This document shows positions 16,153-52,010 of a DNA stretch of 64,000 nt, piece after piece. Each line of letters starts with the position of its first letter. The stretch's first letter is position 1. Origin of the DNA: Elusimicrobiota bacterium (GTDB lineage: Bacteria > Elusimicrobiota > Elusimicrobia > UBA1565 > UBA9628); assembly GCA_016212795.1 (NCBI GenBank), contig JACRDT010000015.1, positions 132,770 through 196,769 of the forward strand. The letters are read 5' to 3'. A program made the translations under genes and the position numbers. Below the pieces are notes generated by a model that was not told the DNA's origin, did no database searches, and saw only the letters and a program-made list of their open reading frames with translations.

Positions 16153-16212
16153 GAAACTCCCTCAGAAACGGCATTTGCCCCCCACTACTCGCCCCCCGTG
16201 GGGGGGCGAGTG
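16083..16212. repeat. MITE-like palindromic element: two ~38-40-bp G/C-run hairpin arms in inverted orientation (16098..16137, 16176..16212) around an AT-rich core
   Basis: The left arm CACTCGCCCCCCCCACGGGGGGGCGAGTAGCGGGGGGGCA and the reverse complement of the right arm differ only in run lengths and one C/T. There is a partial extra left-arm copy TCACTCGCCCCC at 16083..16094. Confidence 0.85.
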
Positions 16213-16214
16213 AT

Positions 16215-30772: not shown

Positions 30773-32098
30773 CTAGGCGTCTTCTTTCAGCCGGGGGTTG
30801 GCGCGGACATAGGCGGCCATCAGGAGGCGGACCGCGGCCCACGACGCGGCGTGAGCGAGGACCCCCGCCACCCCGGCCACGGCCATCTGCTTGGGCAAGA
30901 CCTTGGCCAGGACGACCAAGGAAGCCAGCGCGGCCAGCGTGATGAGCGGGTTGTAGTGGCTCATGACGCCGACCCACACGCCCGCGCCCCAGAGCAGGAA
31001 GACCGCGGCCGCGGCCGCCACGGTCACGACGGGCGCCGCGACGACGCCCAGCCTCGCCGCGACCACGACCACCGCCATGCAGACGAGCACGGAGAACATC
31101 CAGTGGACCGCCGCGCCCGTCCTGTAGGCGCTGAAGCCCTCCGTGCCGGGCACGACGAAGTAGTTCTCCATCAGCCACCGGCCGGCGTCCGCCGCCATTT
31201 CCCACGGATCCTGGGAAGGGACGTCGACCGGCGCGCCCCGCTTCCTCATGGCCTTGAGGGTCGAGCGCGCCGCCTCGCGGACGGGCTTGGCCGGATCCTT
31301 GAGCAGCCTCAGGAGCGGCGCCACGCAGGCCTCGTCGCCGGCCTTCTCGAGAGCGGCGGCGCAGCCCGCGCGCACCGCGGGGGCCGGGCTGGCGAGCCCC
31401 TTGAGCACCGCGGCCTTGTCGTGCCGGCAGAGCGACGCCAGGTAGGACGCGACCCACCCGGCGTCCGACGGCGGGAGCCCGCGGCCGAGCACGGCCACCA
31501 GGGGCTCTAGGCCCAGGGGAGCGTCGATCTCGGCAAGCGCCTGGGCCGCGGCTTTGACCATGAACTGCCAGCTCTCCTTGTCGTAGGCCAGGGCCTTCAC
31601 GAGGGCCGGCACGGCGCGGGCGTCCTTGAACCTTCCCAAGACATCGGCCGCCTGGCAGCGCGCGTACCATGACGGATCCTCGAGGAGCACCTCGATGAGC
31701 GGCTCGACCGCCCGCCGGTCCTCCAGGAACCCCAGGGCGACCACGGCGTGCTCGCGGACCTCCCGGTCGGCGTGCTTGAGAGTCTTGATCACGGGGTCCA
31801 CGGCGCGGGGATCCTCCAGTCGTCCAAGCGAGCTGACGGCCCACCGCACCGCGTCGGCCTCGTCGTCGCCGAGCGCCGCGATCAACGGCTCGACCGCCCG
31901 CTGATCCTCGAGGTCGCCGAGGGCGTTGATCGCCCACCAGCGGTACGGGCAGCTGTTGTCGGACAGGACCTTGATGAGGTGCGGGACCGCCTCCCGGCCG
32001 CGGCGCTCGAGCTCCGAGCGCGCCGAGTCGCTGCCGCGCCACAGCCCCTCCTTGATCAGGTCCGCGATGTCCGTCTTCTCGTCATCGGTCGTTGCCAT
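30773..32098 (-). CDS. HEAT-repeat (PBS-lyase-type) protein with C-terminal multi-TM region
   Basis: Repeated motif D.RAVEPLI..L.D....VR..A..ALG. C-terminal hydrophobic segments VLVCMAVVVVAARLGVVAAPVVTVAAAAAVFLLW... Confidence 0.75.
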   Translation of the reverse strand: MATTDDEKTDIADLIKEGLWRGSDSARSELERRGREAVPHLIKVLSDNSCPYRWWAINALGDLEDQRAVEPLIAALGDDEADAVRWAVSSLGRLEDPRAVDPVIKTLKHADREVREHAVVALGFLEDRRAVEPLIEVLLEDPSWYARCQAADVLGRFKDARAVPALVKALAYDKESWQFMVKAAAQALAEIDAPLGLEPLVAVLGRGLPPSDAGWVASYLASLCRHDKAAVLKGLASPAPAVRAGCAAALEKAGDEACVAPLLRLLKDPAKPVREAARSTLKAMRKRGAPVDVPSQDPWEMAADAGRWLMENYFVVPGTEGFSAYRTGAAVHWMFSVLVCMAVVVVAARLGVVAAPVVTVAAAAAVFLLWGAGVWVGVMSHYNPLITLAALASLVVLAKVLPKQMAVAGVAGVLAHAASWAAVRLLMAAYVRANPRLKEDA

Positions 32099-32118
32099 CC
32101 TGCCTCCGCGCTGCGCCT

Positions 32119-32124
32119 ATTATA
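32119..32124 (-). promoter_or_regulatory. TATAAT -10 box for the HEAT gene (short leader with GGAGG SD at 32103..32107)
   Basis: Minus strand reads gcTATAATaggcgcagcgcGGAGGcaggATG. Confidence 0.45.
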
Positions 32125-32170
32125 GCTCTCATCGGCCGGGGAAGTGGGCCCCCTGTCCACGCCCGATGTG

Positions 32171-32179
32171 TGATATCAT
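32171..32179 (+). promoter_or_regulatory. extended -10 TGATATCAT, 8 nt upstream of ATG 32188
   Basis: Read directly. Confidence 0.45.
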
Positions 32180-32187
32180 AGCGGTGC

Positions 32188-34368
32188 ATGGAACGCCCCG
32201 TCATCGTCATCGCGATTTCCCTCACGGCGGCCGCCCTCCTGGCCGCGGGCCCGGCCGGCGCGCAGCTCGACGTGCCGGAGCCCCCCCTGTTCAAAGCCGT
32301 CGCGGAAGGAGACGTCCAGGAGGTCCGGCGGTCGCTGGCCTTGACTCTCTCACCCCGTGACCGGTGCTACATGGGCGAATCGATCGCGGCCCACGCCAGC
32401 GCCTACGGCGACCTGGAGATCCTCGAGCTGCTGGTCCAAGCCGGGGCTTCCCTCCAGGAAGAGGACTGCCGGGACGACTCCCCCCTCTACCACGCCGCGG
32501 AGCAAGGCCACGCGAAGGCCGTGCGCTTCCTCCTCTCGAAGAAGGCCGACGTCAAGTTCAGGACCGGCAACGGCTCGACCCCTCTGCTGGCGGCCGTCAC
32601 GGGCCCGCTGTTCCAACGGGGACCGAAGGGCGACGCCCGGGAGACCGTCCGCCTCCTCCTCGAGGCCGGCTCCGACCCCGACGCCGAGAACCGGTTCGAG
32701 CAGACCCCCCTGCTCCTCGCCGTGCGCCGCGCCGACGCCAGGCTCGCCCGGCTGCTCTTGGACCGCAAGGCCGACCCGCGCCGGAAGAACGGGCGCGGCG
32801 TCAGCGCCCTCGACCTGGCCAGGCAGGCGGGCCTGGACTACATGGTGGCCGTCCTCGAGAAGCGCGCTCGCGCCGAGCCGACCCGCCCCGGCCGCAAGCT
32901 CATCGACGCGGCCCAAGCCGGCGATCTCGCCGTCGTGGACAAGCTCGTCAAGGAGGGCGCGCCGCTCGACGCCCTCGACGAGGGCGGCAGCACGCCGCTC
33001 ATCCACGCCGCCTTCATGGGCCACGAAGCCGTCGGGGTGGCGCTCGTGAGAGCCGGCGCGGACGCGGGCGCCAGGAACCAGAGCAACGACACGGCGCTCA
33101 TCTACGCCGCCGCCAGGGGCTGCGCCGGCCTCCTCAAGGCCCTGCTCGACCGCGGCGCCGACCCGCTCGCCCGGGACCACTTCCGCGGCACCGGCCTGTC
33201 CTACGCGGTCCGGGAAGGCAAGCCCGAGACCGCCGCCCTCCTCCTGGCCCGCGGCGCGCCCCCGGACGAGAGCGACGACGACGGCAAGACCCTGCTCATG
33301 GAGGCGGCCGTCGCGGGCGACGCGGCCTTGGTCCGGACCCTCCTCGACGGCCAGGCCGCCGTCGACGCCGTCGACAAGTACGGCCGCTCGGCCCTGATGC
33401 ACGCGCTCAAGGAAGGCAAGGACGCCGTCGCCCGCGTCCTCATCGAGCGGGGCGCCGACACCGTGAAGGCGGACAAGGACGGCGCGACCCCGATGCGCTA
33501 CGCGGCCCAGGCCCGGCTCCCCGACATCGCGTCCCTGCTCCTCCAGCGAGGGTCCCGCCCCGACCCAGACGCGCTCCTGGCCTCCATCGCCAACTGGGAT
33601 GTCGCCAGCCTCAAGCTCCTGCTCAAGAACGGGGCGGACCCCGACGGCAAGACGGACGGCAAGCTCCCTCTCGTGGAGGCCGCCGGGGCGTACAGCGACA
33701 AGCTGGCGCTGACCACGCTCCTCGTGGAGGCCGGCGCGGCCGTCGACGCGAGCGACGACGAGGGGAACACGCCGCTCATGAAAGCCGCCGAGTGGGACAA
33801 CGAGGAGTCGACGGCGACCCTCAAGTACCTGCTGGCCCGCGGGGCCGACCCCAAGGCCAAGGACAAGAAGGGCATGACGGCCTGGACCCGCGCCATGCTC
33901 AACGGGCACGACGCGGCCGCCGCGGCCCTGCGGAGCGCCGGCGCGGCGGCGGCCTACGACACCCTCGGATGGCGGGGGTCCAACCTGGACGGCGACGAGA
34001 AGACCGCGGCCGTCGTCTCGGACCAGGCCGGCTGGGAGCGCGTCTGGCGGCGGATGCGGCGCGACCCCGGGGGCCCCACCATCGACTTCAAGGGCTTCGT
34101 CGTGGTCCTCGTCTCCCTCGGCAGGATCCCGGGGCCGGAGTGCCCGTCCGTCGCGTTCAAGGAGCCGGTCCTCGCCGGGGGCGTGACGACCGTCGACTAC
34201 GACATCCACCCCGGAATCGTCTACGACGCCCCCTGGACGACCCCCTACGCGGTCAAGGTGTTCAAGCGCCCGAAAGCCGGCAAGATCGTGGTCAAGGAGC
34301 CTCCGGACCTCTCCTCCTCCCGCGGCAGGTTCGGGCCGGGGGATGGGCCGGGCTTCCTCCGGGAGTAG
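32188..34368 (+). CDS. secreted ankyrin-repeat protein (more than 12 ANK repeats) with a non-ANK C-terminal domain
   Basis: Signal peptide VIVIAISLTAAALLAAGPAGA. Many repeats of the G.TPL..A...G......LL..GAD pattern. Confidence 0.85.
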   Translation: MERPVIVIAISLTAAALLAAGPAGAQLDVPEPPLFKAVAEGDVQEVRRSLALTLSPRDRCYMGESIAAHASAYGDLEILELLVQAGASLQEEDCRDDSPLYHAAEQGHAKAVRFLLSKKADVKFRTGNGSTPLLAAVTGPLFQRGPKGDARETVRLLLEAGSDPDAENRFEQTPLLLAVRRADARLARLLLDRKADPRRKNGRGVSALDLARQAGLDYMVAVLEKRARAEPTRPGRKLIDAAQAGDLAVVDKLVKEGAPLDALDEGGSTPLIHAAFMGHEAVGVALVRAGADAGARNQSNDTALIYAAARGCAGLLKALLDRGADPLARDHFRGTGLSYAVREGKPETAALLLARGAPPDESDDDGKTLLMEAAVAGDAALVRTLLDGQAAVDAVDKYGRSALMHALKEGKDAVARVLIERGADTVKADKDGATPMRYAAQARLPDIASLLLQRGSRPDPDALLASIANWDVASLKLLLKNGADPDGKTDGKLPLVEAAGAYSDKLALTTLLVEAGAAVDASDDEGNTPLMKAAEWDNEESTATLKYLLARGADPKAKDKKGMTAWTRAMLNGHDAAAAALRSAGAAAAYDTLGWRGSNLDGDEKTAAVVSDQAGWERVWRRMRRDPGGPTIDFKGFVVVLVSLGRIPGPECPSVAFKEPVLAGGVTTVDYDIHPGIVYDAPWTTPYAVKVFKRPKAGKIVVKEPPDLSSSRGRFGPGDGPGFLRE

Positions 34369-35314: not shown

Positions 35315-35986
35315 ATGGCCAGACCGGCCCTCCCCAAGGGCGAGAAGACCCGCCAGAACATCATCCGGACCGCGCTGCGGCTCGTGGCCAAGCGGGGCTT
35401 CAGCGAGACCAGCTTCCAGATGATCGCGGACGCCCTGGGCCTCAGCCAGTCCGCGGTCCTGTACCATTACAAGACCAAGTACGCCCTCTTCGAGGACACC
35501 ATCAAGACCATCGTGCGGCACAACCACGAGACGGTCAACGCACTGACGCGCATGACGGACAACGCCGGCCAGCGCCTCGTCAAGCACTGCCTGGGCAACG
35601 TCCTCTGGGCGCATCGCTATAGGGCGGACGGCCAGGTCCTCATCCTCCTCTATTACTTCGCCTGCTTCGAGAGGAAGTTCACCTCCCTCTTCACGCAGAT
35701 GATGGAGCGCGGCCGCGAGAGGCTCATGGTCCACCTGCTGGCCGGGGAGAGGGAAGGGCTGTTCCGCTTGCCGTCCGGGCCGGCCACCGCGGCCGAGACC
35801 CTGCAGGACGCGCTGTTCGGCGCGATGCTCCACGCCATCTCGGCCCCGGAGGGCAGCGTCCCGCGCGGGGAGCTCGAGGGCAAGTGGCGCCAGGTGGTCG
35901 CGGCCCACACGGGCTGGACCGATCCCCGCCCGTCTCTAGTCACTCTACCCTCCCCGCGGGAGGGTAGAGTAGGGGGAGGCGAGTAG
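35315..35986 (+). CDS. TetR/AcrR-family transcriptional regulator
   Basis: KTRQNIIRTALRLVAKRGFSETSFQMIADALGLSQSAVLYHYKTK HTH motif. The last ~15 codons are encoded by the hairpin element. Confidence 0.85.
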   Translation: MARPALPKGEKTRQNIIRTALRLVAKRGFSETSFQMIADALGLSQSAVLYHYKTKYALFEDTIKTIVRHNHETVNALTRMTDNAGQRLVKHCLGNVLWAHRYRADGQVLILLYYFACFERKFTSLFTQMMERGRERLMVHLLAGEREGLFRLPSGPATAAETLQDALFGAMLHAISAPEGSVPRGELEGKWRQVVAAHTGWTDPRPSLVTLPSPREGRVGGGE

Positions 35987-36007
35987 CGAGGGGGCCGATG
36001 CCGCATT
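35941..36007 (+). repeat. solo copy of the G/C hairpin element with a covarying stem
   Basis: Perfect 13-bp stem ACTCTACCCTCCC/GGGAGGGTAGAGT, followed by GCGAGTAGCGAGGGGGCCGATGCCGCATTT. This tail resembles the arm tail GCGAGTAG(C/T)GGGGGGGCA and the GGCATTTG at 16170. Confidence 0.7.
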
Positions 36008-36016
36008 TGGTAAAAT
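36008..36016 (+). promoter_or_regulatory. extended -10 TGGTAAAAT upstream of the LuxC-like fusion gene
   Basis: TGnTAAAAT lies 19 nt before ATG 36036, directly abutting the hairpin element. Confidence 0.4.
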
Positions 36017-36035
36017 CTCCCCGGCAACGACGCCC

Positions 36036-38648
36036 ATGACACCCGCGAAGAACCGCTTCGTTTTCGGACGATGGGAGACGGCCGGGCCCCTCACTCCCGA
36101 GGACGCCTCCCGCATCGGCGGCCAGGCCCGGACGGCCATGCCCGCCCTCGCGGACTATCCCGTCGACAAGATCCTCTCCCTGCTCGGCCGGACGGCCGAC
36201 CGCTGGGCCGGCCCGCGGTCCGGCCTGCGCCGCGAGGCGCTGCGCCGGCTGCCCGCCATCACCGGCTTCTCGCCCGCGATGGTGGCCAAGGGGCTCGACG
36301 AGCTCTGCTGGACCCTGGACCCCGGCCTGCTGGCGAGGAAGCTCGAGACGGAACTGCGGCCCGACGCCGCCCCCCAGCGGCTGATCTGGGAGCCCCTGGG
36401 GGTCGTCCTGCACGTCCTGGCCGGCAACGTCTTCGTGGGCGCGGCCGGCGCCCTGGTCGAGGGGCTCGTCACCCGCAACGTCTCCATCCTGAAGATGCCC
36501 TCCGCCGACACCTTCTTCCTGCCGGCGCTCCTGCGCTCTCTGGCCGAGCTCGACCAAGACGGCGTGGTCGCCGGGTCCGTGGCGGCCGTCGAGTACGGCT
36601 CGGGCCAGCAGGACGTCATCGACCGCTTCAAGTCGTCCGTGGACGCCGTCGCGGTGTGGGGCGGCGAGGGCTCCGTCCGGGCGTACCGCGATGGGCTGCC
36701 GGCCAGGACGAGGCTGCTGGTCTTCGGCCCGAAGATCAGCCTGGCGGTCGTGACAAAGGAAGGGCTTGAGGAAACGGATCTCGCCTCAACGGCCCGACGG
36801 CTGGCCGCTGAGGCGAGCATATGGGACCAGAACGCCTGCACGGCGCCCCAGGTCTGCTACGTGGAAGGAGAGCGCGCGGCGCGCGCTCTCGTCGAAGCCC
36901 TCCCGCAAGCCTTCGAGGCGGCGGCCCGACGCCTGCCGCCCGGCGCGATCGGCCGGGACAACGCCGTCGAGATCCAGAAGCTGCGCGCCATCGCTTCGGT
37001 CGCCCAAGGCCGCGGGGAAGGGGTCCTCAAGCGCTCCCCCCGCGGGCTGGACTGGACCGTGATCCTCGACCGGGACCTCACCCTGGAGCCCTCCCCCCTG
37101 CACCGGACGCTGCGCGTCGCGCCGTTCCGGGACGTCTCGGAAGTCCTGGGGCAGATCGAGTCCCTGCGGGGGTACATCCAGACCGTCGGGCTCGTGGCGT
37201 CCGCGGGCGAGCAGCGCGGCCTGGCCGAAAGCCTCGCCCGAGCCGGAGCCCTGCGCGTCCTGGAGCTGGGCGCGATGGCCTCGGGGGAGATCGACGACCC
37301 GCACGACGGCCAATACGACCTCCCCCAGTACATGAACCTCGTCATCGGGCGGGTCGGCAGGACCCGGGGCTCCACCCTGCACCTGCCCGAGGCCGAGAGG
37401 CGGCGGCTCGTCGACGCGCGCCTCCGATGCCTCGTCGCGGCGGCCCGGCGCTCCGCGTTCTACGGCAAGCGGCTCAAGGGGCTGACCCTCGAGACCGCCG
37501 CGGACCTGCCCCGGGTGCCCGTCCTCACCCGGTCCGAGATGGAGGCGAACATGCCCCCCCAGGGCGACGGGCTCTCCACGGGCCCCTGGGCGGGCGGGTA
37601 CGTCTCGCGCAGCGGCGGCTCGACCGGCGAGCCCAAGTTCTCGGTCTACGACCGGCACGACTGGGACGCCATGATCTCGAGCGCCGTCGACGTCTTCAGG
37701 GACATGGGCTTCGCCGAGGACGACCGGCTGGGCAACTTCATGCTGGCCGGGGACCTCTACGGGAGCTTCGTCTCCTTCGACCACATCAACGCCAGGCTCG
37801 GGCTCACGAGCTTCGCGTTCGCCGGGAATTCCAACCCCGAGACGTTCGTGAAGGTCTGGAGGAAGTTCCGCCTTACGGCCGTCCAGGGGATACCCTCCCA
37901 CCTCCTGCCCTTCCTCCGGCGAGCCAAGGAGCTTGAGCCGGGCCTGACCCTGCGCAAGCTCATGTACGCCGGCGTCCCCCTGGCCCCCTCCGACTACGAC
38001 TGGCTCAAGGCCTCCCTCAAGGTCGAGCGCATCGCCTCGGTCATCGGCGCCAACGACGGGGGGCAGATCGCCTACCAGTGCCCCATGATGCGGGGGGCCG
38101 CGCACCACGCCGTCGACGAGTTCAACTTCCTCGAGGTCGTCGACGGCAAGGACCGCCCCGTGCCGGAGGGCCAGGCCGGGCAGATCGTCATCACGAGCCT
38201 CCTCAAGCTCGCCTTCCCCCTCATCCGCTACGCTCTCGGCGACAGCGCCCGGATCGTCCCCCGGCCCTGCCCCTGCGGCGGGACGGCCCGGGTGATCGAG
38301 TACCTGGGCCGCTGCGACGACGTCCTCGCCGTCGGCATGCTCAACGTCCGCTACCGCGACTTCCAAGACGCGCTCGGGCGCTTCCCCGTCTCGGCCCTCC
38401 AGCTGGCCGCGACGAACGACGCCAGGGGCGAGTCCGTCGTGGTGCGGGTGGAGACCGGCGCGCCGGCGTCCGGCGACGGCCTGGCCGAGCGCATGCGCCG
38501 GTCCATCCTCGCCGCCATGGAGAAGGTCCGCGAGCGCCTCGCCGCCGGCGCCCTGGCCGGGCTGCGCGTCGAGCTCTTCGGCCCCGGCGAGCTTCCCCGC
38601 AACCTTCGGAGCGGCAAGGTCAAGGCGCTCGTCGACGAGAGGCGATGA
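36036..38648 (+). CDS. fusion protein: LuxC-like acyl-CoA reductase (N, ~430 aa) + PaaK/coenzyme-F390-synthetase-like adenylate-forming enzyme (C)
   Basis: N-terminal half: LHVLAGNVF, ILKMPS, IWDQNACTAPQVCYV (LuxC-type catalytic Cys context). C-terminal half: SRSGGSTGEPKF, IVITSL...PLIRYALGD, PCPCGGTARVIEYLGRCDD as in PaaK-like ligases. Confidence 0.7.
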   Translation: MTPAKNRFVFGRWETAGPLTPEDASRIGGQARTAMPALADYPVDKILSLLGRTADRWAGPRSGLRREALRRLPAITGFSPAMVAKGLDELCWTLDPGLLARKLETELRPDAAPQRLIWEPLGVVLHVLAGNVFVGAAGALVEGLVTRNVSILKMPSADTFFLPALLRSLAELDQDGVVAGSVAAVEYGSGQQDVIDRFKSSVDAVAVWGGEGSVRAYRDGLPARTRLLVFGPKISLAVVTKEGLEETDLASTARRLAAEASIWDQNACTAPQVCYVEGERAARALVEALPQAFEAAARRLPPGAIGRDNAVEIQKLRAIASVAQGRGEGVLKRSPRGLDWTVILDRDLTLEPSPLHRTLRVAPFRDVSEVLGQIESLRGYIQTVGLVASAGEQRGLAESLARAGALRVLELGAMASGEIDDPHDGQYDLPQYMNLVIGRVGRTRGSTLHLPEAERRRLVDARLRCLVAAARRSAFYGKRLKGLTLETAADLPRVPVLTRSEMEANMPPQGDGLSTGPWAGGYVSRSGGSTGEPKFSVYDRHDWDAMISSAVDVFRDMGFAEDDRLGNFMLAGDLYGSFVSFDHINARLGLTSFAFAGNSNPETFVKVWRKFRLTAVQGIPSHLLPFLRRAKELEPGLTLRKLMYAGVPLAPSDYDWLKASLKVERIASVIGANDGGQIAYQCPMMRGAAHHAVDEFNFLEVVDGKDRPVPEGQAGQIVITSLLKLAFPLIRYALGDSARIVPRPCPCGGTARVIEYLGRCDDVLAVGMLNVRYRDFQDALGRFPVSALQLAATNDARGESVVVRVETGAPASGDGLAERMRRSILAAMEKVRERLAAGALAGLRVELFGPGELPRNLRSGKVKALVDERR

Positions 38649-38661
38649 CGAGGGGGGCCTG

Positions 38662-39906
38662 ATGCTCATCGCCCGCAACCGGGACATGCTCCTGCTGTGG
38701 CTCGGGCAGGTCCTCAGCCAGGCCGGGACCCGCATGCACCAGATCGCCCTGGCCTGGTGGATCGTGACCTGGGCCTCCGGCCCAGGGGCGGGAGGCTCCG
38801 GCGCCAAGCTCGGGACCTTCATGGTCGCCGGGGCCCTGCCGGCCATCCTCCTGGTCAAGGTCATCGGGCGCACGGTCGATGAGAACCCCTCCCGGCGGGT
38901 CCTGGTGGCCGCCGACGTCCTCTCGGCCGCGGTCGCGGCCGTCATGGCCGCGGCCCTGGCGGCCTCGCTGCTCGATTTCGCCTGGGCCTGCGCCGGGGGG
39001 TTCGTCCTGGCCGGGCTGCAGGCCTTCTTCGACCCCGCGCTCAACAAGGCGGTGTCGGAGGTCGTCGAGCCCCGGGACATCGAGGAAGCGGTCGCCTTCC
39101 AGTCGTCGACCCAATCCCTCGCGAGCTTCGCGGGCGCGGTCGCCGGCGCGCTCCTCATCGAGCGCCTCGGCATCGCGGGGGTGGTCAGGCTCAACGCCGC
39201 GAGCTTCCTGCTCTCCGGGGCGCTCAACGCGTGCCTGCGCATGAAGCACGCCCGGCCGGCGACCCCCGAAGCCCAACAGCCCGGGCTCTCGGGGTGGGCC
39301 ATCGTCAACCGGATGCCCCTCGTCAAGAAGGTGCTGCTGGGGTTCGGCTTCGTCAACTTCTTCATGACCCCGATCCTGGTGGTCCTGCCCCTGTACGTCA
39401 AGGAGACGCTCTCCGGCTCGGCTTCGCTCCTCGGGGCGCTCGAGGCCGGCCTCTGGGTGGGCCTCGTGACGGGCACGGCCGTCGCCGGCTGGCGGGGGTT
39501 CCCCAAGGACACGCTCCGCCTGGGCGCCTGGTGCCTGGCCGTCATCGGCGGGTGCCTCGCCGTCCCGGGCGTCGTCGCGGCGGCGCCGCTGTTCCTCGCG
39601 CTGCTCTTCATCGCCGGGGCGGCGCTCGGCGTCAACAACGTCAAGTTCGTCGCGCTCTTCCAGGTCGCGGTCGCGCCCGAGCACAAGGGCAGGTTCTTCG
39701 CCCTGATGGCCGCGCTCGTCAGCTTCACCTTCCCGGTCGCCTTCTTCCTCTTCGGCATGCTCGCGGACGTGCTCAAGCCGCAGCACGTGTGCCTCATCCA
39801 AGGGCTGGGGATCCTGGGGCTCGCCGCCTATTTCGCCAGGCTCGCGGCTGTCGCGCGCACCCCCTGCGGGGGGGCAAGCATCGGAGGGGCATGCCAGACC
39901 GCATGA
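38662..39906 (+). CDS. MFS transporter (EntS/MFS_3-like)
   Basis: NRDMLLLWLGQVLSQAGTRMHQIALAWWIV N-terminus. About 12 TM segments. Confidence 0.75.
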   Translation: MLIARNRDMLLLWLGQVLSQAGTRMHQIALAWWIVTWASGPGAGGSGAKLGTFMVAGALPAILLVKVIGRTVDENPSRRVLVAADVLSAAVAAVMAAALAASLLDFAWACAGGFVLAGLQAFFDPALNKAVSEVVEPRDIEEAVAFQSSTQSLASFAGAVAGALLIERLGIAGVVRLNAASFLLSGALNACLRMKHARPATPEAQQPGLSGWAIVNRMPLVKKVLLGFGFVNFFMTPILVVLPLYVKETLSGSASLLGALEAGLWVGLVTGTAVAGWRGFPKDTLRLGAWCLAVIGGCLAVPGVVAAAPLFLALLFIAGAALGVNNVKFVALFQVAVAPEHKGRFFALMAALVSFTFPVAFFLFGMLADVLKPQHVCLIQGLGILGLAAYFARLAAVARTPCGGASIGGACQTA

Positions 39907-41105
39907 CCTGCCGCTGGGCCACGCCCTCCGACGACCCCGCCATCCGCGCCCTCTGCGCCGGGCGGCCCGCCGCCGCGAAGGACCGCTCGTCGCTCCCGCG
40001 CCCATCGGGCATCGCGTCGGCGTTCCGGGACGCGGTCGAGGCAGGAGGCCGAGCGTCCCGGCCGTCCTCGGGAATGGCGTCGACGGGCCGGGAGACGGCG
40101 TGGGCCGTCGCCGAGGAGGACGGCGCCATCGTCGCGGCGGCGCTCGTGAGCGTGGAGCCGGCGACCCGGCTGGGCAAGCTGCAGTCCCTGCGCGCCGACG
40201 GCCCGGCGGAGCGCCGGCCGCCGCGCCTGCGGGACCTGGCGGGGTTCCTGACCCGCCACTTCCAGGAGGCCGGCACGGTCGACCTCCTCTACGGCACGAC
40301 TCGCAACCTCAGCATGGAGGAGCAGTCCGCGACCGTCGCCGCGGGCTTCAAGGTGCTGGGGGTCTTCCCCGGCGCCGTCGCGGCCGACCCCACGGCGACC
40401 ACCGGGCTGGCCGCCTGGTACGCCCCGGGGGTCCTCGCGGACAAGCGCCACGCCGACTTCGCCCTCCACCCGGCCATCGCGCCGTTCTACGACATCGCGG
40501 CGAGCCAATGCGGCCTGGCAAGCCTGCCCCCGGCGGCCCAGCCCCTGGGCCCGGCGGCCTTCCCCCAGCCCGAGGCGCCCGCGCCGTCCCGGGCCCTGCT
40601 CGAGGTCATCGATGCCCCCGCCTTCGCCGCCGAGCGCTTCCGGCGGCTCAAGGAGCGCCGCAGCCTCTCCGTGAATTTCTACCCCTTCACGGACCCCAAC
40701 GTCATCCTCATGAGCGCCGACGAGAGCATCCAGGTCTTCGCGTCCCTGTCCCGCGAGGTGCGCTTCGCCACCATCATCGGGGAGCACCTGCGCGCGGGCA
40801 CCGACCCGGTGCAGCTCTACAGCGAGGCCCTCCGCCTGCTCCACGGACATGGCGCCCTCTATATCGAGGTCATCAACGACGCCGCCGACGCGGCGGGCAT
40901 CGAGTACATCCTGCGCGCCGGCTTCTCCCCCTGCGGCTACGTCCCGTGCCTCAAGCTCCTGGGCGACAAGCGCCGCGACTTCGTGGTCTTCGCCAACTCC
41001 AAGGAGACCGCGGTCCAGCCCGGGCGCGACCACCCCGAGCACCGCCGCTTCTTCGAGGAGTACGTCAAGATCAGCCTGGGCGGCTGGCCCCCCAAACGAC
41101 CGTGA
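39903..41105 (+). CDS. double-domain GNAT-like protein, paralog 1 (N-terminal acetyl-CoA motif degenerate)
   Basis: ATGA overlap with the MFS gene. The C-terminal half aligns by eye with 42526..43695 (FYPFTDPNVILMS / FFPFHEPNLLLVA; YIEVINDAADAAGIEYILRAGFSPCGYVP / YLELLTSAYHPEVVKRIMDARFLPSAYYP). Confidence 0.5.
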   Translation: MTCRWATPSDDPAIRALCAGRPAAAKDRSSLPRPSGIASAFRDAVEAGGRASRPSSGMASTGRETAWAVAEEDGAIVAAALVSVEPATRLGKLQSLRADGPAERRPPRLRDLAGFLTRHFQEAGTVDLLYGTTRNLSMEEQSATVAAGFKVLGVFPGAVAADPTATTGLAAWYAPGVLADKRHADFALHPAIAPFYDIAASQCGLASLPPAAQPLGPAAFPQPEAPAPSRALLEVIDAPAFAAERFRRLKERRSLSVNFYPFTDPNVILMSADESIQVFASLSREVRFATIIGEHLRAGTDPVQLYSEALRLLHGHGALYIEVINDAADAAGIEYILRAGFSPCGYVPCLKLLGDKRRDFVVFANSKETAVQPGRDHPEHRRFFEEYVKISLGGWPPKRP

Positions 41106-42529
41106 ACATCCTCCTCGTCAACCCCCTGCTGGCCCCCGACAGGACCCCGGAGACGTGCAACCTCGGGCTGGCCTACATCGCAAGCGCCCTCCGCCAGGAC
41201 GGCCACCGCCTCACCGTGCTGGACCTGGACGCCCGAAGGATGCCCCCCGAGCGGGTCCGCGAGGTCCTCGCCAAGACCGACTTCGACGCCGCGGGCATCG
41301 GGACGCTCGTCAGCGGCTTCCGCTCGACCCGCTGGCTGACTCGGCAGATCAGGGAGCTCAAGCCCCAAGCCCACATCTGGGTGGGCAACAGCATCGCGAC
41401 GCCCATCCCCGAGGTCATCCTGCGGGAGATGCCGGTGGACGTCGTGGCGCTCGGCGAGGGCGAGGCCACCGTCCGGGAGCTGGCCCGGGCGACGGAACGC
41501 GGGGAGGACCTCTCGTCGGTCGCGGGCATCGTCTACCGGGGCCCCGGCGGCCCGGTCGCGACGGCCCAGCGCCCCGTCATCGCGGACATCGACTCCATCC
41601 CGATGCCGGCCTGGGACCTCTTCCAGCAGGACGTCTACACGAAGTCCTCCACGGCCGGCATGCCCGGTCCCAAGATGTACGTGATCACGACCCGCGGCTG
41701 CCCCTATCGCTGCACCTACTGCTACCACCCCTTCCAGAACGTCAAGGTCCGGTTCCACTCCGCCGAGCGCGTGGTCGCGGAGATCGCGGAGCTCCAGGGC
41801 CGCTACGGGGTCAGGAGCATCCACTTCGGCGACGACCTCTTCGTGGTCGACAAGAAGCGCGTCTACGAGATCTGCGACCTGATGGAGAAGCGCCGCGTCA
41901 AGGTCCTCTGGAGCGCCGCCAGCCGCGTCAACACGCTCGACGAGGACATGCTCAAGCGCATGAAGAGCGCCGGCTGCGTCGTCCTGGGGTTCGGCATCGA
42001 ATCCGGCAGCCAGACGATCCTCGACAACATCAAGAAGCGCACGACCGTCGCCCAGGGGCTCGACGCGGTCAGGCTCTGCCGGAAGGTCGGCATCGAGGCC
42101 GCCTGCAGCTTCATGATCGGCAACGTCGGCGAGACCCCCGAGACGGTGGCGGCCAGCGTCGACTTCATCAAGCGGGCCGACCTGCCGCCGACGGTCTTCT
42201 TCTTCACCACGCCCTACCCGGGCACCGAGCTCTACGAGCACGGCCGGGCCGCCGGCCTCATCAAGGACGAGGTGGCCCTCTTCGAGTCCTACGGGGAGCA
42301 GAACGACCAGTTCCTGGTCAATTTCACCGGCATGACCGACGCCGAGCTCCTGCGCGTGAAGAAGGCCGCCGAGGACCGGCTGCTCGTCGACTACGGGCGG
42401 CGCCACCCCCTGCGCTGGCTGCGGCACATGGGCCGCCACCTGCGCCACAACGTGCGCAACTACGGCTGGGCGGCCGTCCTGCGGCGCATCGTCCGCAGGC
42501 TGGGCCGCCTGGTTCGGAGCCGGCCATGA
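41102..42529 (+). CDS. B12-binding-domain radical SAM enzyme
   Basis: GTGA overlap. N-terminal Rossmann-like NILLVNPLL...GLAYIASAL...DVVALGEGE. TTRGCPYRCTYC CxxxCxxC motif. Confidence 0.8.
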   Translation: MNILLVNPLLAPDRTPETCNLGLAYIASALRQDGHRLTVLDLDARRMPPERVREVLAKTDFDAAGIGTLVSGFRSTRWLTRQIRELKPQAHIWVGNSIATPIPEVILREMPVDVVALGEGEATVRELARATERGEDLSSVAGIVYRGPGGPVATAQRPVIADIDSIPMPAWDLFQQDVYTKSSTAGMPGPKMYVITTRGCPYRCTYCYHPFQNVKVRFHSAERVVAEIAELQGRYGVRSIHFGDDLFVVDKKRVYEICDLMEKRRVKVLWSAASRVNTLDEDMLKRMKSAGCVVLGFGIESGSQTILDNIKKRTTVAQGLDAVRLCRKVGIEAACSFMIGNVGETPETVAASVDFIKRADLPPTVFFFTTPYPGTELYEHGRAAGLIKDEVALFESYGEQNDQFLVNFTGMTDAELLRVKKAAEDRLLVDYGRRHPLRWLRHMGRHLRHNVRNYGWAAVLRRIVRRLGRLVRSRP

Positions 42530-43695
42530 AGAGCTCCCCCGGGCGGAAGGCCCGGCTCAAGAAGCCGGCCGCCGTCATCCGGCGGGCGACCCCCGAGGAC
42601 GCCGACGAGCTGCGGCGCATGTACCACGACGTCTACGAGGGCAAATACACCCTCAGCATCATCTACGACGCCGACGAGACCGCCGACGCCCTCAAGAAGG
42701 ACGACGTCCATTGGTTCGTGGCCGAGGACGCCGGCCGGATCGTGAGCTCCGTCATCTTCTCCGTCGAACGGGACCTCAAGCTCGCCAAGGTCTTCGGGGC
42801 CGTGGTCCTTCCAGAGTACCGGGGCTCGGACCTGACCGAGCGCGCCATCGCCATGGGGCTCGCCTCGATCATCGACGAGGAAGGCCAGGCCCACAGCGCC
42901 TACGCCACCGCCCGCACGATCTCGCCCGCCCCCACGCGCCTCCTGCGCAACCTCGGGTTCGCGGACCTGGGGGTGCTGCCCAACGTCCGCAAGGTCCAGA
43001 ACTACGAGACCCACTGCATGTGCGCCTACTTCCGCAAGGGGGCGCTGGCCGACCGGGTGGTCCCGCCCAGGCTCCCGACCGCGCTCAAGCCCTTCTACTC
43101 CATCGTCCGGCGCGCCACGGGCATCGGGGACGCCGAGTGGCACGAGCTCCCCATCGAGCCCTCCTCCCCGTACGCCGGCAAGTGGATCGAGTTCGAGATC
43201 ATCGAGGCCCCGCACTACATCCTGGGGCGCTGGAAGGCGCTCAAGGCCGAGCACAAGCTCAAGATGCAGTTCTTCCCCTTCCACGAGCCCAACCTCCTGC
43301 TCGTGGCCAAGGACCGCCCCGCGGAGATCTACGTCTACTACTCCAAGTCCGACCACTACGCGGCCATCATCGGGGGCCACGAGCACGTCCCCGACCTGAC
43401 GCACCTGCTCAACTCGATCGTCATGGCCCTCGAGGAGCACGGGGCGCGCTACCTGGAGCTCCTGACCTCGGCCTACCACCCGGAGGTCGTCAAGAGGATC
43501 ATGGACGCGAGGTTCCTGCCGAGCGCCTACTACCCCGCCCTGCGGTGGAACCACGGGCAGGGCCACGACTACATCGTCTTCAGCAAGTCCTTCGTGCTGC
43601 TGGACTTCAGCAACATCGTGGCCGAGGGGCTCGTCAGCGACTACATGCGGGAGTACTTCAACCTCTGGCGGGCGCTGTACATCAGGGGCGTCTGA
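42526..43695 (+). CDS. double-domain GNAT-family protein, paralog 2
   Basis: ATGA overlap. IRRATPEDADELRRMY and VVLPEYRGSDLTERAIAMGL (R-x-x-G-x-x-type CoA motif). Confidence 0.6.
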   Translation: MKSSPGRKARLKKPAAVIRRATPEDADELRRMYHDVYEGKYTLSIIYDADETADALKKDDVHWFVAEDAGRIVSSVIFSVERDLKLAKVFGAVVLPEYRGSDLTERAIAMGLASIIDEEGQAHSAYATARTISPAPTRLLRNLGFADLGVLPNVRKVQNYETHCMCAYFRKGALADRVVPPRLPTALKPFYSIVRRATGIGDAEWHELPIEPSSPYAGKWIEFEIIEAPHYILGRWKALKAEHKLKMQFFPFHEPNLLLVAKDRPAEIYVYYSKSDHYAAIIGGHEHVPDLTHLLNSIVMALEEHGARYLELLTSAYHPEVVKRIMDARFLPSAYYPALRWNHGQGHDYIVFSKSFVLLDFSNIVAEGLVSDYMREYFNLWRALYIRGV

Positions 43696-43725
43696 CCCCA
43701 GGGCGGGCCGGGGCCGGCCCGGCGC

Positions 43726-45138
43726 TCAATGGGCCAACAGGCGCAGGCCGGCGGACAGCTGGTGCCTCAAGGCAGCCAGGGAACGCACCGAGGCCAGGCG
43801 CCGGAAGATGTAGCCTGGCCGCAGATAGAACCTCCGGTAGATGTCCTTGATCATCGCCGCGAGTTCTTCACGGGTGAAATGCTCGTTCCATACCTCGGGC
43901 GTGAAGCCGGGCGAGGGATCCTGCGCGTAGCGCCGCCAATAATCCCCGGGGAACAATCCCTTGGCGAGGCCGAGCCGGTACAGGTCGGTGCCCGGGAACG
44001 GCGTCGCCGCCCCCAGATGGATGTAGTCGGCGTCGAGGCCGAGGAGGTAGTCCACCGTCGCCGCGATGTGGCGGCGCTGCTCGCCCGGGCATCCGATCAT
44101 GAAATAGGCGAGGGTCTCGAACCCCAGCCTCTTCGCCGCCGAGAACGTCTCTTTCGCCTTCGCCAGGTCGATGTCCTTTCGGAGGGCCTTCAGGATGTCC
44201 GGATGGCCCGATTCGATGCCCAGATGGAGCCGGTAACAGCCGCTCTCCCGGAGCCGCTCGAGCATCTCCCGGTCGAGCGTGTCGACCCGCGCGCGGACGT
44301 CCCAGAGGACCTTCAGCCTCCTTCGCGCGATCAGGGAGCATATCTCCATCACCCGAGACCGGTCGATCGTGAAGGTGTCGTCGTAGAATTTGATCTCGCC
44401 GATCCCCCGCGACACGCAGTCCTCCATCTCCCGCACCACGGAGCCGGGCGAGCGGGCCCTGAATCTCTTGCCGAGGTGCGGCCGTTCGCAGAACAGGCAA
44501 GGGTAGGGGCAACCCCTGCTCGAGATCATCGTCGTGATGCGATCCGCCCTGCCCAGCAGCGAATGGTAGAGCCCGTTGTCGAGCAGGCCTCGGTCCGGCG
44601 ACGGGACGTCATCGAGGTCCGCGATCAGGCCTCTCTCGGCGGTGCGCACGACGGCGCCGTTCTCCCGCAGCACCAGGCCCGGGACAGCCTTGAGGTCGCC
44701 CTTGCCGGCGAGCGAACGCAGGAGGTCGACGACGGCGGATTCCCCTTCCCCCAGCACGAGCGAATCGACCGGGGGGAACCCGATCGACTCCTCGGGATAG
44801 ATGTTCACGTGCGGGCCGCCCAGGCAGACGTGCGCGCCGGGCCGGACCCTCTTCGCCGCCGCCGCGACGCGATACGCGTCGAGGAGCGAGAACGTCAGGA
44901 CCTGGATGCCGACGAAGTCGGGCCTGCGGCGCGCGATCTCGCGCTCGATGCCGGGTTCGTCGAGCCGTTCGGCGGCGCAGTCGAGGACTTCGACGTCCCA
45001 ATCGGTGCCGGCCCGGGCGGCAGAGGCCACATAGAGCAGACCCATCGGGGGGTAGCAGCCCGTGGAATCATCCACGAAGGCCGGGACATTCGAGCGGATC
45101 ATGTGCCGCGACGGCGGGTAGATGAACAGGGCCTTCAT
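43726..45138 (-). CDS. B12-binding-domain radical SAM enzyme (second copy, different subfamily by eye)
   Basis: MKALFIYPP...GLLYVASAA...SLVLGEGE. SSRGCPYPCLFC. Start at ATG 45138 inside ORF 43726..45720. Confidence 0.8.
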   Translation of the reverse strand: MKALFIYPPSRHMIRSNVPAFVDDSTGCYPPMGLLYVASAARAGTDWDVEVLDCAAERLDEPGIEREIARRRPDFVGIQVLTFSLLDAYRVAAAAKRVRPGAHVCLGGPHVNIYPEESIGFPPVDSLVLGEGESAVVDLLRSLAGKGDLKAVPGLVLRENGAVVRTAERGLIADLDDVPSPDRGLLDNGLYHSLLGRADRITTMISSRGCPYPCLFCERPHLGKRFRARSPGSVVREMEDCVSRGIGEIKFYDDTFTIDRSRVMEICSLIARRRLKVLWDVRARVDTLDREMLERLRESGCYRLHLGIESGHPDILKALRKDIDLAKAKETFSAAKRLGFETLAYFMIGCPGEQRRHIAATVDYLLGLDADYIHLGAATPFPGTDLYRLGLAKGLFPGDYWRRYAQDPSPGFTPEVWNEHFTREELAAMIKDIYRRFYLRPGYIFRRLASVRSLAALRHQLSAGLRLLAH

Positions 45139-45191
45139 GGTCTCAGGTCCGCGCGGAGCGGCCCCTTCGGCGCGAGGCCGGCGGGACCCCG

Positions 45192-46118
45192 CTATTTCCT
45201 CGCGCCGTGCTGGCGGCGCAACAGAGAGAATTGATCCGCCAGGATGCCGAACAGCAAAATCAAGAGAGCGCCCAGCGACATGACGACGCCCGTGTTGGGC
45301 ACCCTGCCATGCAGGCCGATGTTGAGGATCGTCATCCCGACCCCGATGACGCCGCAGACCACGGCGGCGGGGATGAAGACCCTCAGCGGGTTGAACAGCG
45401 AGATGGTCCTCATGATCATGATGACGGTGTTGATCCCGTCGCTGACGACATTCACGTTGCTTGCCCTGCCGGCGCGCTCGTACACCGTGACCGGGACGAA
45501 CGTCACGCTGTACCCGTCGCCCATGAAGGCGAGAGTGGTCGTCGTGGAGATGGAGAACCCGTTCGGATAGAGGGGAAGGAACTCGAGGAACACGCTCTTC
45601 TTGAACAGCCGCAGGCCGGAATTGACGTCGGGGATCGCCGTCCCGGCCAGGTAATTGGATACCAGCCGCATGATCATCTTCCCGGGGCGCCTGACCCAGG
45701 CGGGGTGCGCCCCATGGCACCGGTTCCCGATGATCAGATCATACCCTTCTTCCTGAGCCTTGAAGAACGACGGCAGGCTGTCCAGGCGATGCTGCCCGTC
45801 GCTGTCGAGAGTCAGGATCCATCCATGCCCCGCCGATCTCGTCCCCGCCTTGATGGCGGCCCCGTAGCCCATGTTGTACGGCAGCCTGATCACCTTGACC
45901 CCTTCCACCGACCCCGCGATGGCCGCTGTTCGATCGGTCGACCCGTCGTCGACCACGATGACCTCGCAGCCCCGATGGCAGGCCGCCCGCGAAAGGGCCT
46001 CCCGCACGTGCTCGAGGAGCGCGCCGATCTCCGACTCCTCGTTGTACGCGGGGATGACGACGCTGACGTCGTCGTCGCGCCTGCCGCCCCCTTGCGCTCG
46101 CGGTCCTGATCCGATCAT
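45192..46118 (-). CDS. GT2 glycosyltransferase, polyprenol-phosphate glycosyltransferase-like (DPM1/ArnC-type) with C-terminal TMs
   Basis: VSVVIPAYNEE, VVDDGSTDRT, LDSDGQH (DxD). C-terminal hydrophobic helices. Confidence 0.8.
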   Translation of the reverse strand: MIGSGPRAQGGGRRDDDVSVVIPAYNEESEIGALLEHVREALSRAACHRGCEVIVVDDGSTDRTAAIAGSVEGVKVIRLPYNMGYGAAIKAGTRSAGHGWILTLDSDGQHRLDSLPSFFKAQEEGYDLIIGNRCHGAHPAWVRRPGKMIMRLVSNYLAGTAIPDVNSGLRLFKKSVFLEFLPLYPNGFSISTTTTLAFMGDGYSVTFVPVTVYERAGRASNVNVVSDGINTVIMIMRTISLFNPLRVFIPAAVVCGVIGVGMTILNIGLHGRVPNTGVVMSLGALLILLFGILADQFSLLRRQHGARK

Positions 46119-46179
46119 ATCCCGATGCCCAGGCCGGAGCGAGCCGCCATCGCTCGAAGTCCGGCTTGATGGGCCCTTA

Positions 46180-46872
46180 TTATAGCTGATGTCCGGCCGG
46201 CGTCGGGCGGGCAGCCACGCAGCAGATATCGAACCCGATGCTCCTGAGCGGCGTCTTGCCGAGCATTCGTCCGATCGGTATCCACCAGCAGGGAGCCTTG
46301 TTGGGGACAAGCCATCCTTCCACGTGGACATGAACGGATAGGAGTCCCGTCTTCACGAACAGCCCACGCATGTAGCCGGGAGAGAAACGCCATGCCATGC
46401 GTTCTTCTCGCTCGAGCAGAGAGAACGCTAATACCAGAGGGTTCGTTCGGTTAGGCTCGAACGAGATGACGGCACGGCTGGCAACCCTCCTCATCTCCAT
46501 CAGGGTTCGGATCCGGGCGGGTTCTTCAAGATGATGGAGGAGGTGGGAAGCGACCGCAACGTCAAAACTCCCATCAGCGAACGGAAGCCCCTCGGAGGAA
46601 CCGAGGTACTTCTCCTTGCAGGGGTTGACCTCGAGCATCCGCGCAGAGCGGTCCACCCCGGCGACCCGCCCGAACCGCTTCTCCAGCGCCCATTGCAGAT
46701 ATCCATTCCCGCACCCGACGTCGAGCACGCTGGAAGCGCCCGCGCCGTCGACGGCTGACGCGACGATGGCCGCGAACGGGGCGAACGTCGCTTCTACGAC
46801 GGGGTGGTCCGGTGTCCGTCGGTCATGGTTGTCTCTAGACCAATGCTCATCCTGAATCTTCTGTTCGCCCAA
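46180..46872 (-). CDS. class I SAM-dependent methyltransferase
   Basis: VLDVGCGNGYL and FDVAVASHLLHHL. The region is visibly less GC-rich. Confidence 0.7.
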   Translation of the reverse strand: MGEQKIQDEHWSRDNHDRRTPDHPVVEATFAPFAAIVASAVDGAGASSVLDVGCGNGYLQWALEKRFGRVAGVDRSARMLEVNPCKEKYLGSSEGLPFADGSFDVAVASHLLHHLEEPARIRTLMEMRRVASRAVISFEPNRTNPLVLAFSLLEREERMAWRFSPGYMRGLFVKTGLLSVHVHVEGWLVPNKAPCWWIPIGRMLGKTPLRSIGFDICCVAARPTPAGHQL

Positions 46873-46989
46873 TCGCCCCTCTTCCTATGGCTGGTCGCGC
46901 AACGATCCGGGATCCCAGCCTGTCCCGGCACCATGAGTCTGACATTCCTCGCCAAGCGCTCGCAAGAGGACTTTGATATCATTCTCCCG

Positions 46990-50081: not shown

Positions 50082-50123
50082 CGCCGCTCGGGAGGAAGGG
50101 CCCGGCCGAGGACGCTCCCCCGC

Positions 50124-51526: not shown

Positions 51527-51536
51527 CATGGTGCCC

Positions 51537-52010
51537 ATGAAGCTCTACCTGCTCCGGCACGGCCATGCGTTGTCGGCCACCGAGGCCAAGGTCGCCAGCG
51601 ACGCCGACCGGCCTCTCTCCGACCAGGGGCTCGCCGACGTCAGCCGGATGGCGCTCTACCTCTCCAGCCGGGGCGTCGTGCCGAACCTCATCCTCCACAG
51701 CCCGCTCAAGCGGGCCAGGCAGACGGCCGCTCACGCCCGCTCCGCCTGGCCCAGCCATCCGGCCATCGAGGTCTTCGACCCGCTTGCCAACATCCTCGGC
51801 CCCGAGGAGCTCCTGGACCGCCTCCTGGAGCGCTCGGCGGGCGTGCCCGAACTCCTGGCGGTCGGGCACCAGCCCCAGCTCGGGGAGCTCGCCCGGCACC
51901 TCAGCGACGCGCAGTTCGCCCTGAGGCCGGCCGGCGTCATCGCCCTGGAGACCACGGACAAGAAAGCCCGCACCCTCTGGGCCTTCAACCCCGAAGACCT
52001 CATGCTGTGA
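51537..52010 (+). CDS. sixA: SixA-type phosphohistidine phosphatase (histidine phosphatase superfamily)
   Basis: MKLYLLRHGHA (RHG motif), SPLKRARQTA, AVGHQPQL. Confidence 0.75.
   Translation: MKLYLLRHGHALSATEAKVASDADRPLSDQGLADVSRMALYLSSRGVVPNLILHSPLKRARQTAAHARSAWPSHPAIEVFDPLANILGPEELLDRLLERSAGVPELLAVGHQPQLGELARHLSDAQFALRPAGVIALETTDKKARTLWAFNPEDLML

Follow-up and report, generated by a model that had tools for sequence, protein, structure and literature searches.

A stretch of 64,000 nucleotides (nt) from an Elusimicrobiota bacterium (contig JACRDT010000015.1, positions 132,770 to 196,769; hereafter the window), part of a 228-kb contig and ~70% in GC content, carries a compact operon at 35315-43695 that is built around a fusion of a LuxC-type reductase to a PaaK-like ligase. 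Judging from sequence, the core of this operon is a distant relative of the leupeptin (leup) pathway. We infer that the operon is a remodelled leupeptin-type member whose exported product is a short N-acyl amino or peptide aldehyde, and give this reading, including its product and chemistry, a probability of about 0.5. The TetR-family regulator and the radical SAM enzyme of the operon are lineage-specific additions and not defining parts. An earlier note on this DNA had proposed that the genes form a self-contained pathway producing an acyl or amino-aldehyde compound and exporting it, which is reasonable as a general idea.

The operon consists of six co-directional open reading frames (ORFs) on the + strand, with a GC content at third codon positions (GC3) of 0.93-0.98, in the order tetR, LuxC::PaaK fusion, major facilitator superfamily (MFS) transporter, GNATa, radical SAM (rSAM1) and GNATb. 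Its features, with protein lengths in amino acids (aa), are as follows:

35315-35986, + strand: TetR-family regulator, the first gene of the set (Pfam TetR_N, E 9.8e-12)
35942-35970, + strand: perfect 13-bp inverted repeat with a 3-nt loop, in the 3' end of tetR
36036-38648, + strand: LeupB-like fusion of 870 aa with LuxC and PaaK-like domains
38662-39906, + strand: MFS_3/MFS_1 transporter, the presumed exporter (Pfam)
39903-41105, + strand: GNATa, a predicted tandem GNAT of 400 aa (AlphaFold model and Foldseek; no Pfam match)
41102-42529, + strand: rSAM1, with B12-binding and Radical_SAM domains (Pfam), between GNATa and GNATb
42526-43695, + strand: GNATb, a tandem-GNAT paralogue of 389 aa (paralogy to GNATa; weak Acetyltransf_1 match)

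All six reading frames are unbroken, tightly coupled and host-like in codon usage. Stop/start overlaps of 4 nt join the MFS gene to GNATa (ATGA, 39903), GNATa to rSAM1 (GTGA, 41102) and rSAM1 to GNATb (ATGA, 42526). The co-directional layout, the three overlaps and the two motifs quoted from the fusion are exactly as the earlier note had them; only its title, which placed both GNATs ahead of the radical SAM, was wrong, the actual order being GNAT, radical SAM, GNAT. An independent Logan assembly contig (SRR12113407) is identical to window 38030-45963 (100% across 7,934 bp), showing that the gene arrangement is not an artefact of a single assembler.

Leupeptin-type pathways produce peptide aldehydes without a non-ribosomal peptide synthetase (NRPS), using stand-alone ATP-dependent ligases, GNAT acyltransferases and a LuxC-type reductase, and their products are small N-acyl peptide aldehydes. 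The leup operon is said to have been established by genetics and heterologous expression, by Li and co-workers in 2020 in Angew Chem. To our knowledge, pathways of this type are so far known only from gammaproteobacterial pathogens and symbionts, and we found no literature on the cassette described here outside Gammaproteobacteria. In Klebsiella (michiganensis/oxytoca), Photorhabdus and Xenorhabdus, the operon encodes an MFS transporter, the LuxE-like LeupA, the LuxC::PaaK fusion LeupB, the PaaK-like LeupC and the GNAT LeupD (bioRxiv 10.64898/2026.08.25.747093; PMC8283571). We recovered the leup operon by a metagenome scan with the published leupA_f primer (PMC8283571). In the Klebsiella-type operon obtained (L067), both published primers match with the exact 1,235-bp amplicon spacing, and the locus contains a partial MFS gene, LeupA of the LuxE family, LeupB as an 801-aa fusion of LuxC and AMP-binding domains, a PaaK-like LeupC and the GNAT LeupD. 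An operon of the leup type is also present on Salmonella plasmids, where the published primers found no match, and a rearranged version is present on Streptomyces plasmids.

The window fusion aligns with LeupB over nearly the full length (residues 96-870 with 72-801) at 25.8% identity and E 1.4e-57, with the same order of reductase and ligase. The key motifs are matched between LeupB and the window fusion, namely CFDQQACSSPQ with IWDQNACTAPQ, RSGGSSGVPK with RSGGSTGEPK, and a C-terminal SGK...D(K/E)RR. The window operon likewise has an MFS transporter and GNAT acyltransferases, and the canonical cassette of its relatives has homologues of all four Leup enzymes; in those relatives, the free ligase is 33% identical to LeupC (E 2e-38) and a 493-aa protein matches LeupD (E 7e-11). 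The earlier note knew of no characterised cluster with such a composition, a claim that does not survive this comparison. It had also stated that a fusion matching a characterised pathway enzyme, with its partners explained, would count against a novel cluster, and LeupB provides such a match in part. The window operon differs from the leup operon in lacking LeupA, LeupC and a clear LeupD equivalent, in having two tandem GNATs of 390-400 aa, and in the addition of TetR and a radical SAM with a B12 domain. The host belongs to a different phylum and identity is low, and the product is probably not leupeptin.

Peptide aldehydes are also formed by NRPS terminal-reductase routes (flavopeptin, the gut dipeptide aldehydes, livipeptin), for which the predicted end chemistry is the same: a thioester on a small N-acyl peptide is reduced to give a C-terminal aldehyde. 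The window operon has no carrier protein, condensation or SDR-type reductase domains, making this an analogy and not a homology. The falcitidin pathway was set aside as irrelevant to the cassette, being an NRPS.

The fusion is 100% identical to the NCBI protein HY927_07720 from a groundwater Elusimicrobia metagenome-assembled genome (MAG). Its LuxC domain spans residues 39-431 (nt 36150-37328; Pfam PF05893, E 1.8e-73, 248 bits against a threshold of 21), and its PaaK-like adenylate-forming domain spans residues ~455-870 (nt 37398-38645). PDB matches are PaaK (4r1l, E 6e-32) and LuxC (7xc6, E 3.5e-21). Profile searches (Pfam, NCBIfam) and these structures uphold the earlier domain calls and the reductase-ligase order. 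IWDQNACTAPQ begins at residue 262 and SGGSTGEPK at residue 526; Cys268, within the former motif, aligns with the catalytic acyl-accepting Cys of Photobacterium phosphoreum LuxC (PDB 7xc6). The fusion holds every residue that is invariant among 16 aligned family members, and it has > 145 full-length homologues (43-72% identity) from Elusimicrobia, Riflebacteria, Bdellovibrionota, Oligoflexales and Pendulispora (Myxococcota).

Both halves of the fusion score below the curated NCBIfam cut-offs. The fusion reaches only 91.9 bits with the bioluminescence LuxC equivalog NF052251 (cut-off 750) and 68.4 bits with PaaK TIGR02155 (cut-off 646), and the NCBIfam PaaK, DVU_1553 and F390 models all match the ligase half below their cut-offs. 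The ligase half aligns over the whole fold of PaaK-type ligases, including the C-terminal subdomain and its lysine (phenylacetate-CoA ligase, F390 synthetase-like, AjiA1/NatL2 and TamA-like enzymes; PDB 4r1l, 2y27, 6wuq, 6siw), and differs from them in its position behind a reductase; on these scores it is PaaK-like in fold only. Compared with the LuxC-LuxE fatty acid reductase (PDB 7xc6; PMC9157457), the window fusion has the same LuxC fold and catalytic Cys, and in the relatives of the window LuxE is still a separate protein, encoded immediately before the fusion. It differs in that the reductase is joined to a complete PaaK-like ligase and that the operon has no LuxE and no LuxD/LuxAB context. 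The earlier description of the fused ligase as belonging to a different clade from LuxE needs qualifying, since LuxE itself is PaaK-like; what it lacks is the C-terminal subdomain (PMC9157457). In addition, LuxC takes acyl-CoA as well as acyl-LuxE as donor (PMC9157457). This makes a hand-off from PaaK to LuxC without LuxE chemically plausible, and a fused domain of the CoA-ligase type could replace LuxE.

To define the cassette, 55 species-level loci and three contexts were fetched, and neighbours were mapped by tblastn; these gave 57 distinct places including the window, from Elusimicrobia, Bdellovibrionota, Riflebacteria, Myxococcota and others. Unless other places are stated, the window is part of each count that follows. 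A typical cassette contains a PaaK-like ligase (~440 aa), the 493-aa LeupD-like protein (with a weak GNAT signal), LuxE, the fusion, an MFS_3 transporter and GNATa. Among the 48 other places with enough room, an automatic count found LuxE immediately before the fusion in 46, and L040, where LuxE overlaps the fusion start, is a 47th. Where at least 4.5 kb of upstream sequence was available (39 places), the free ligase is found in 33 and the 493-aa protein in 32; where at least 3 kb was available downstream (42 places), the MFS gene is found in 37 and GNATa in 36. GNATb is found mainly in the closest Elusimicrobia (L005, L006, L008, L009), straight after GNATa, with weaker opposite-strand matches in L020 and L050. 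Neighbourhood conservation was a check asked for in the earlier note, which would have taken its absence from related genomes as a refutation; the fusion, MFS and tandem GNAT do occur together in most of the 57 places. On the other hand, tblastn detected neither a TetR nor a radical SAM homologue at any of the 56 other places, which counts against the proposal that the two are integral parts of the pathway.

Some cassettes are reduced or rearranged. In the closest clade (L005-L007), the free ligase and the 493-aa protein are already missing while the rest is kept. A second arrangement without LuxE and MFS, consisting of the fusion and GNATa only, is found at 1885-5600 of L012 (Elusimicrobia MAG CAYWAR010000077); it is preceded by a DUF4143 gene and followed by two convergent genes for Rce1-like CAAX proteases. 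On a plasmid of Streptomyces sp. NBC_00158 (L064, NZ_CP108162, 2863-12401), a leup-like cassette is reordered to PaaK-like ligase, MFS, tandem GNAT, LuxE and LuxC::PaaK fusion, and it adjoins three genes annotated as peptidase inhibitor family I36.

The nearest relatives, L006 and L007, have fusions that are 72% identical to the window fusion, and tblastx shows that the surroundings are syntenic. An ankyrin gene upstream is common to both sides, and the His-phosphatase gene found at 51528-52010 in the window directly follows GNATb or GNATa in L006/L007. Compared with these loci, the window has lost LuxE from its usual position, which is taken by tetR and an unassigned divergent gene; rSAM1 has been placed exactly between GNATa and GNATb; and a block of ~7.8 kb with lower GC (43.7-51.5 kb; GC3 0.83-0.91 over most of it) has been gained. 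tblastn across the 64-kb window found no homologue of LuxE, the free ligase or the 493-aa protein, and apart from the C-terminal half of the fusion the window has no PaaK-like sequence. The block (43726-51458) holds three ORFs of 444-512 aa with no family match and two genes convergent with the operon:

43726-45138, - strand: second B12 radical SAM (rSAM2), 36% identical to rSAM1
45192-46331, - strand: glycosyltransferase family 2 (GT2) protein of the polyprenyl-phosphate type (AglJ/PpgS/ArnC-like)

We considered the GT2 and rSAM2 genes as operon members and rejected them, as the synteny with L006/L007 puts both in the separate lower-GC insertion. When the window GT2, rSAM1 and rSAM2 proteins were used as tblastn queries, no related locus had a comparable gene next to its fusion, with only a partial GT2-domain match in L021. 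Directly upstream of the operon, 30773-34368 encodes a 441-aa HEAT/PBS-lyase repeat protein and a 726-aa ankyrin-repeat protein, both eukaryote-like, of which the ankyrin protein is syntenic with L006.

The MFS protein is 36% identical to that of the Streptomyces cassette and has a weak match to the LplT part of Aas (NCBIfam); BLAST against the partial Klebsiella leup MFS gave no match. The AlphaFold model of GNATa (pLDDT 85.9, pTM 0.87) is a tandem GNAT, and Foldseek matched it to the tandem GNATs 2wpw and 9en3 and to single-domain amino-acid N-acetyltransferases. GNATb and GNATa are full-length paralogues with 29% identity (E 1e-32). GNATb is 63-69% identical to the genes in L005, L006, L008 and L009, and 28% identical over the full length to the Streptomyces cassette GNAT. 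PDB sequence searches with both GNATs returned noise only. With hhalign, the GNATa family had no significant match to LeupD or to the 493-aa protein. In a sequence comparison, the N-domain of GNATb matched LeupD weakly (E 7e-4, in a tiny database).

rSAM1 exceeds the Pfam cut-offs for both of its domains (B12-binding PF02310, 59 bits; Radical_SAM PF04055, 94 bits) and contains the cluster motif CxxxCxxC at C200, C204 and C207. Against the named NCBIfam B12 radical SAM subfamilies (HpnJ, BchE, ApyD, PhpK and others), every match is under the cut-off, the best being HpnJ at 188 bits against 578. The AlphaFold model (pLDDT 93.5) has as its top structural match AprD4, a sugar 1,2-diol dehydratase, with a template-modelling (TM) score of 0.74-0.77, followed by TsrM, MgmA (the MCR glutamine methylase), OxsB, CysS and TokK. 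With this set, rSAM1 shares the N-terminal Rossmann domain of the B12 type and the CxxxCxxC barrel (TM 0.65-0.77), at an identity of just 17-23%; because methylases stand alongside AprD4, a dehydratase that does not methylate, the chemistry is not transferable. Consequently, the C-methylation suggested in the earlier note is not established by the fold: methylation by rSAM1 is possible, and dehydratase-type chemistry would be an alternative.

The nearest sequence relatives of rSAM1 are not these structurally characterised enzymes but uncharacterised enzymes of sugar loci. The five closest homologues (51-60% identity) all lie in NeuB/DegT/CMP-sugar (nonulosonic-acid), nucleotide-sugar or polysaccharide loci, and the 430-, 512- and 426-aa proteins that flank homologues in those loci have no counterpart in the window. 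rSAM1 was recruited into the operon from this sugar-associated lineage, and its host-like codon usage (GC3 0.975) indicates that it is an old, integrated member of the operon. We also observed nonulosonic-acid loci with 2-3 B12 radical SAM genes, methyltransferases and unassigned proteins of 400-512 aa on two Elusimicrobia-like contigs (L061 8001-17446, L075 8001-16607), suggesting that members of this group modify their surface sugars extensively by radical chemistry.

The inverted repeat ACTCTACCCTCCC cgc GGGAGGGTAGAGT falls in the final 45 nt of tetR and precedes the fusion start by 66 nt. The repeat occurs once in the window and its region folds as RNA at -57.4 kcal/mol (z = -3.4). It may be an operator, an attenuator or a processing hairpin.

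From these data we propose the following pathway as the most likely one. A tandem GNAT would N-acylate an amino acid or a short peptide; GNATb is the likelier enzyme for this step because its N-domain keeps the signature of acyl-CoA-type GNATs. GNATa, the near-universal partner of the fusion, would then perform a second acyl or aminoacyl transfer, and rSAM1 would tailor the intermediate at an unactivated carbon. The PaaK-like half of the fusion would activate the free carboxylate with ATP, as acyl-AMP or acyl-CoA, and the acyl group would pass to Cys268 of the LuxC half, where reduction by NAD(P)H would yield the aldehyde. The MFS_3 transporter would export the product, and TetR would repress the operon until a ligand is present.

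The intact coupled genes, the host codon usage of rSAM1 and the invariant residues in the fusion can be taken as signs of a functional operon, the resemblance of the GNATa model to amino-acid N-acetyltransferases would support the GNAT step, and the fusion-GNATa pair in L012 supports a hand-off without LuxE. Several points weigh against the leupeptin-type reading. None of the 64 kb encodes LuxE, the free ligase or the LeupD-like protein, though LuxE is near-universal beside the fusion; the pathway may be incomplete or may rely on genes elsewhere. The fusion shares only 26% identity with LeupB, which leaves room for a different class of product, and GNATa has no hhalign-detectable sequence relation to LeupD. 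In addition, neither the relatives of rSAM1 in sugar and polysaccharide loci nor its best fold match, a sugar diol dehydratase, would obviously suit a peptide substrate. A bolder version, which we hold to be doubtful, is that the LuxE-less operon is a working minimal aldehyde route: the LuxC::PaaK fusion would be a self-sufficient carboxylate reductase acting on a GNAT-made N-acyl amino acid, the sugar-lineage radical SAM would add a C-methyl group or another change, and the extended cassettes, with the rearranged one on the Streptomyces plasmid, would represent a large untapped family of NRPS-independent protease-inhibitor pathways.

The main alternative is that the operon is an incomplete remnant, which either needs LuxE, a ligase and a LeupD-like protein encoded at other sites of the genome or has lost its ancestral product. 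Here LuxE is missing from a position it occupies in 47 of 48 other places, the other two partners are likewise absent, and the inspected DNA is 64 kb of a 228-kb contig within a whole MAG. Against this, the six ORFs are intact, tightly coupled and at host codon usage, and the fusion has all of the residues invariant among the 16 aligned members; moreover, the closest clade had earlier dropped the free ligase and the 493-aa protein and kept the rest, and L012 offers another LuxE-less fusion with GNATa. We regard a remnant as unlikely. The sugar-locus ancestry of rSAM1 points to a different alternative, cell-envelope decoration, in which an acyl or aldehyde product, or the radical SAM and GNATs themselves, would modify a glycan or lipid together with the neighbouring GT2 and rSAM2, and the MFS would be a flippase or a transporter of the lysolipid type. 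In favour of this are the AprD4-like fold, whose known action is on a sugar, the presence of the polyprenyl-phosphate-type GT2 and rSAM2 just downstream, and the weak LplT match of the MFS. However, the GT2/rSAM2 block is convergent, lower in GC and missing from the syntenic relatives, related loci have no comparable gene beside the fusion apart from the partial match in L021, and the core proteins have their homologues in a soluble small-molecule pathway, which makes envelope decoration improbable.

The LuxC domain with its aligned catalytic Cys could also belong to a Lux-like fatty acid reductase whose fatty aldehydes or alcohols would be precursors of lipids, waxes or signals, the GNATs and the radical SAM being tailoring enzymes for the lipid; lipid-associated B12 radical SAM families (HpnJ, HpnR, ladderane type) are among the rSAM1 matches, all of them sub-threshold. 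This is very improbable given a LuxC equivalog score of 92 against 750, an activating domain that is PaaK-like, a type for small or aryl acids, and not FadD- or LuxE-like, the lack of a LuxD-type transferase, and a nearest characterised relative, LeupB, that is a peptide-aldehyde enzyme. We give the least credence to the proposal of the earlier note, a wholly uncharacterised type of six-gene pathway that has no known analogue and includes TetR and the B12 radical SAM as integral components. In its favour, none of the biosynthetic proteins of the operon is named by a curated NCBIfam equivalog, and we found no literature on the cassette outside Gammaproteobacteria; the shared core composition and homologous fusion of the leup operon contradict it, and the confinement of tetR and rSAM1 to the window among the 57 places also counts against it.

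Other regions of the window also contain gene sets of note. A second compact cassette at 14186-19628 (+ strand) may be another small-molecule or peptide-modification operon; it encodes an M20 peptidase, a SAM methyltransferase, a small radical SAM, a protein with a pre-ATP-grasp domain and an MFS transporter, and the next gene is that of a histidine kinase. A GC dip (~0.63) at 24135-25217 surrounds a gene for an AAA_14/DUF4143 ATPase; a DUF4143 gene is also the one directly upstream of the L012 fusion. At 57052-61866 (- strand), a 1,604-aa protein combines an AAA_5 (dynein-related/MoxR-like) ATPase domain with a C-terminal VWA domain.

In summary, a homologous but extended leup-like cassette with an extra tandem GNAT is widespread in uncultured groundwater Elusimicrobia, predatory Bdellovibrionota, Riflebacteria and Myxococcota, is rearranged on a Streptomyces plasmid, and has been rebuilt around a radical SAM enzyme in one lineage. 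If active, these cassettes would be a source of new protease-inhibitor-like aldehydes. The window variant provides a test case for whether a LuxC::PaaK fusion alone can act as a carboxylic-acid reductase and, if so, would offer a compact biocatalyst. If the minimal route is true, this uncultured Elusimicrobia bacterium would make a previously unseen tailored amino or peptide aldehyde.

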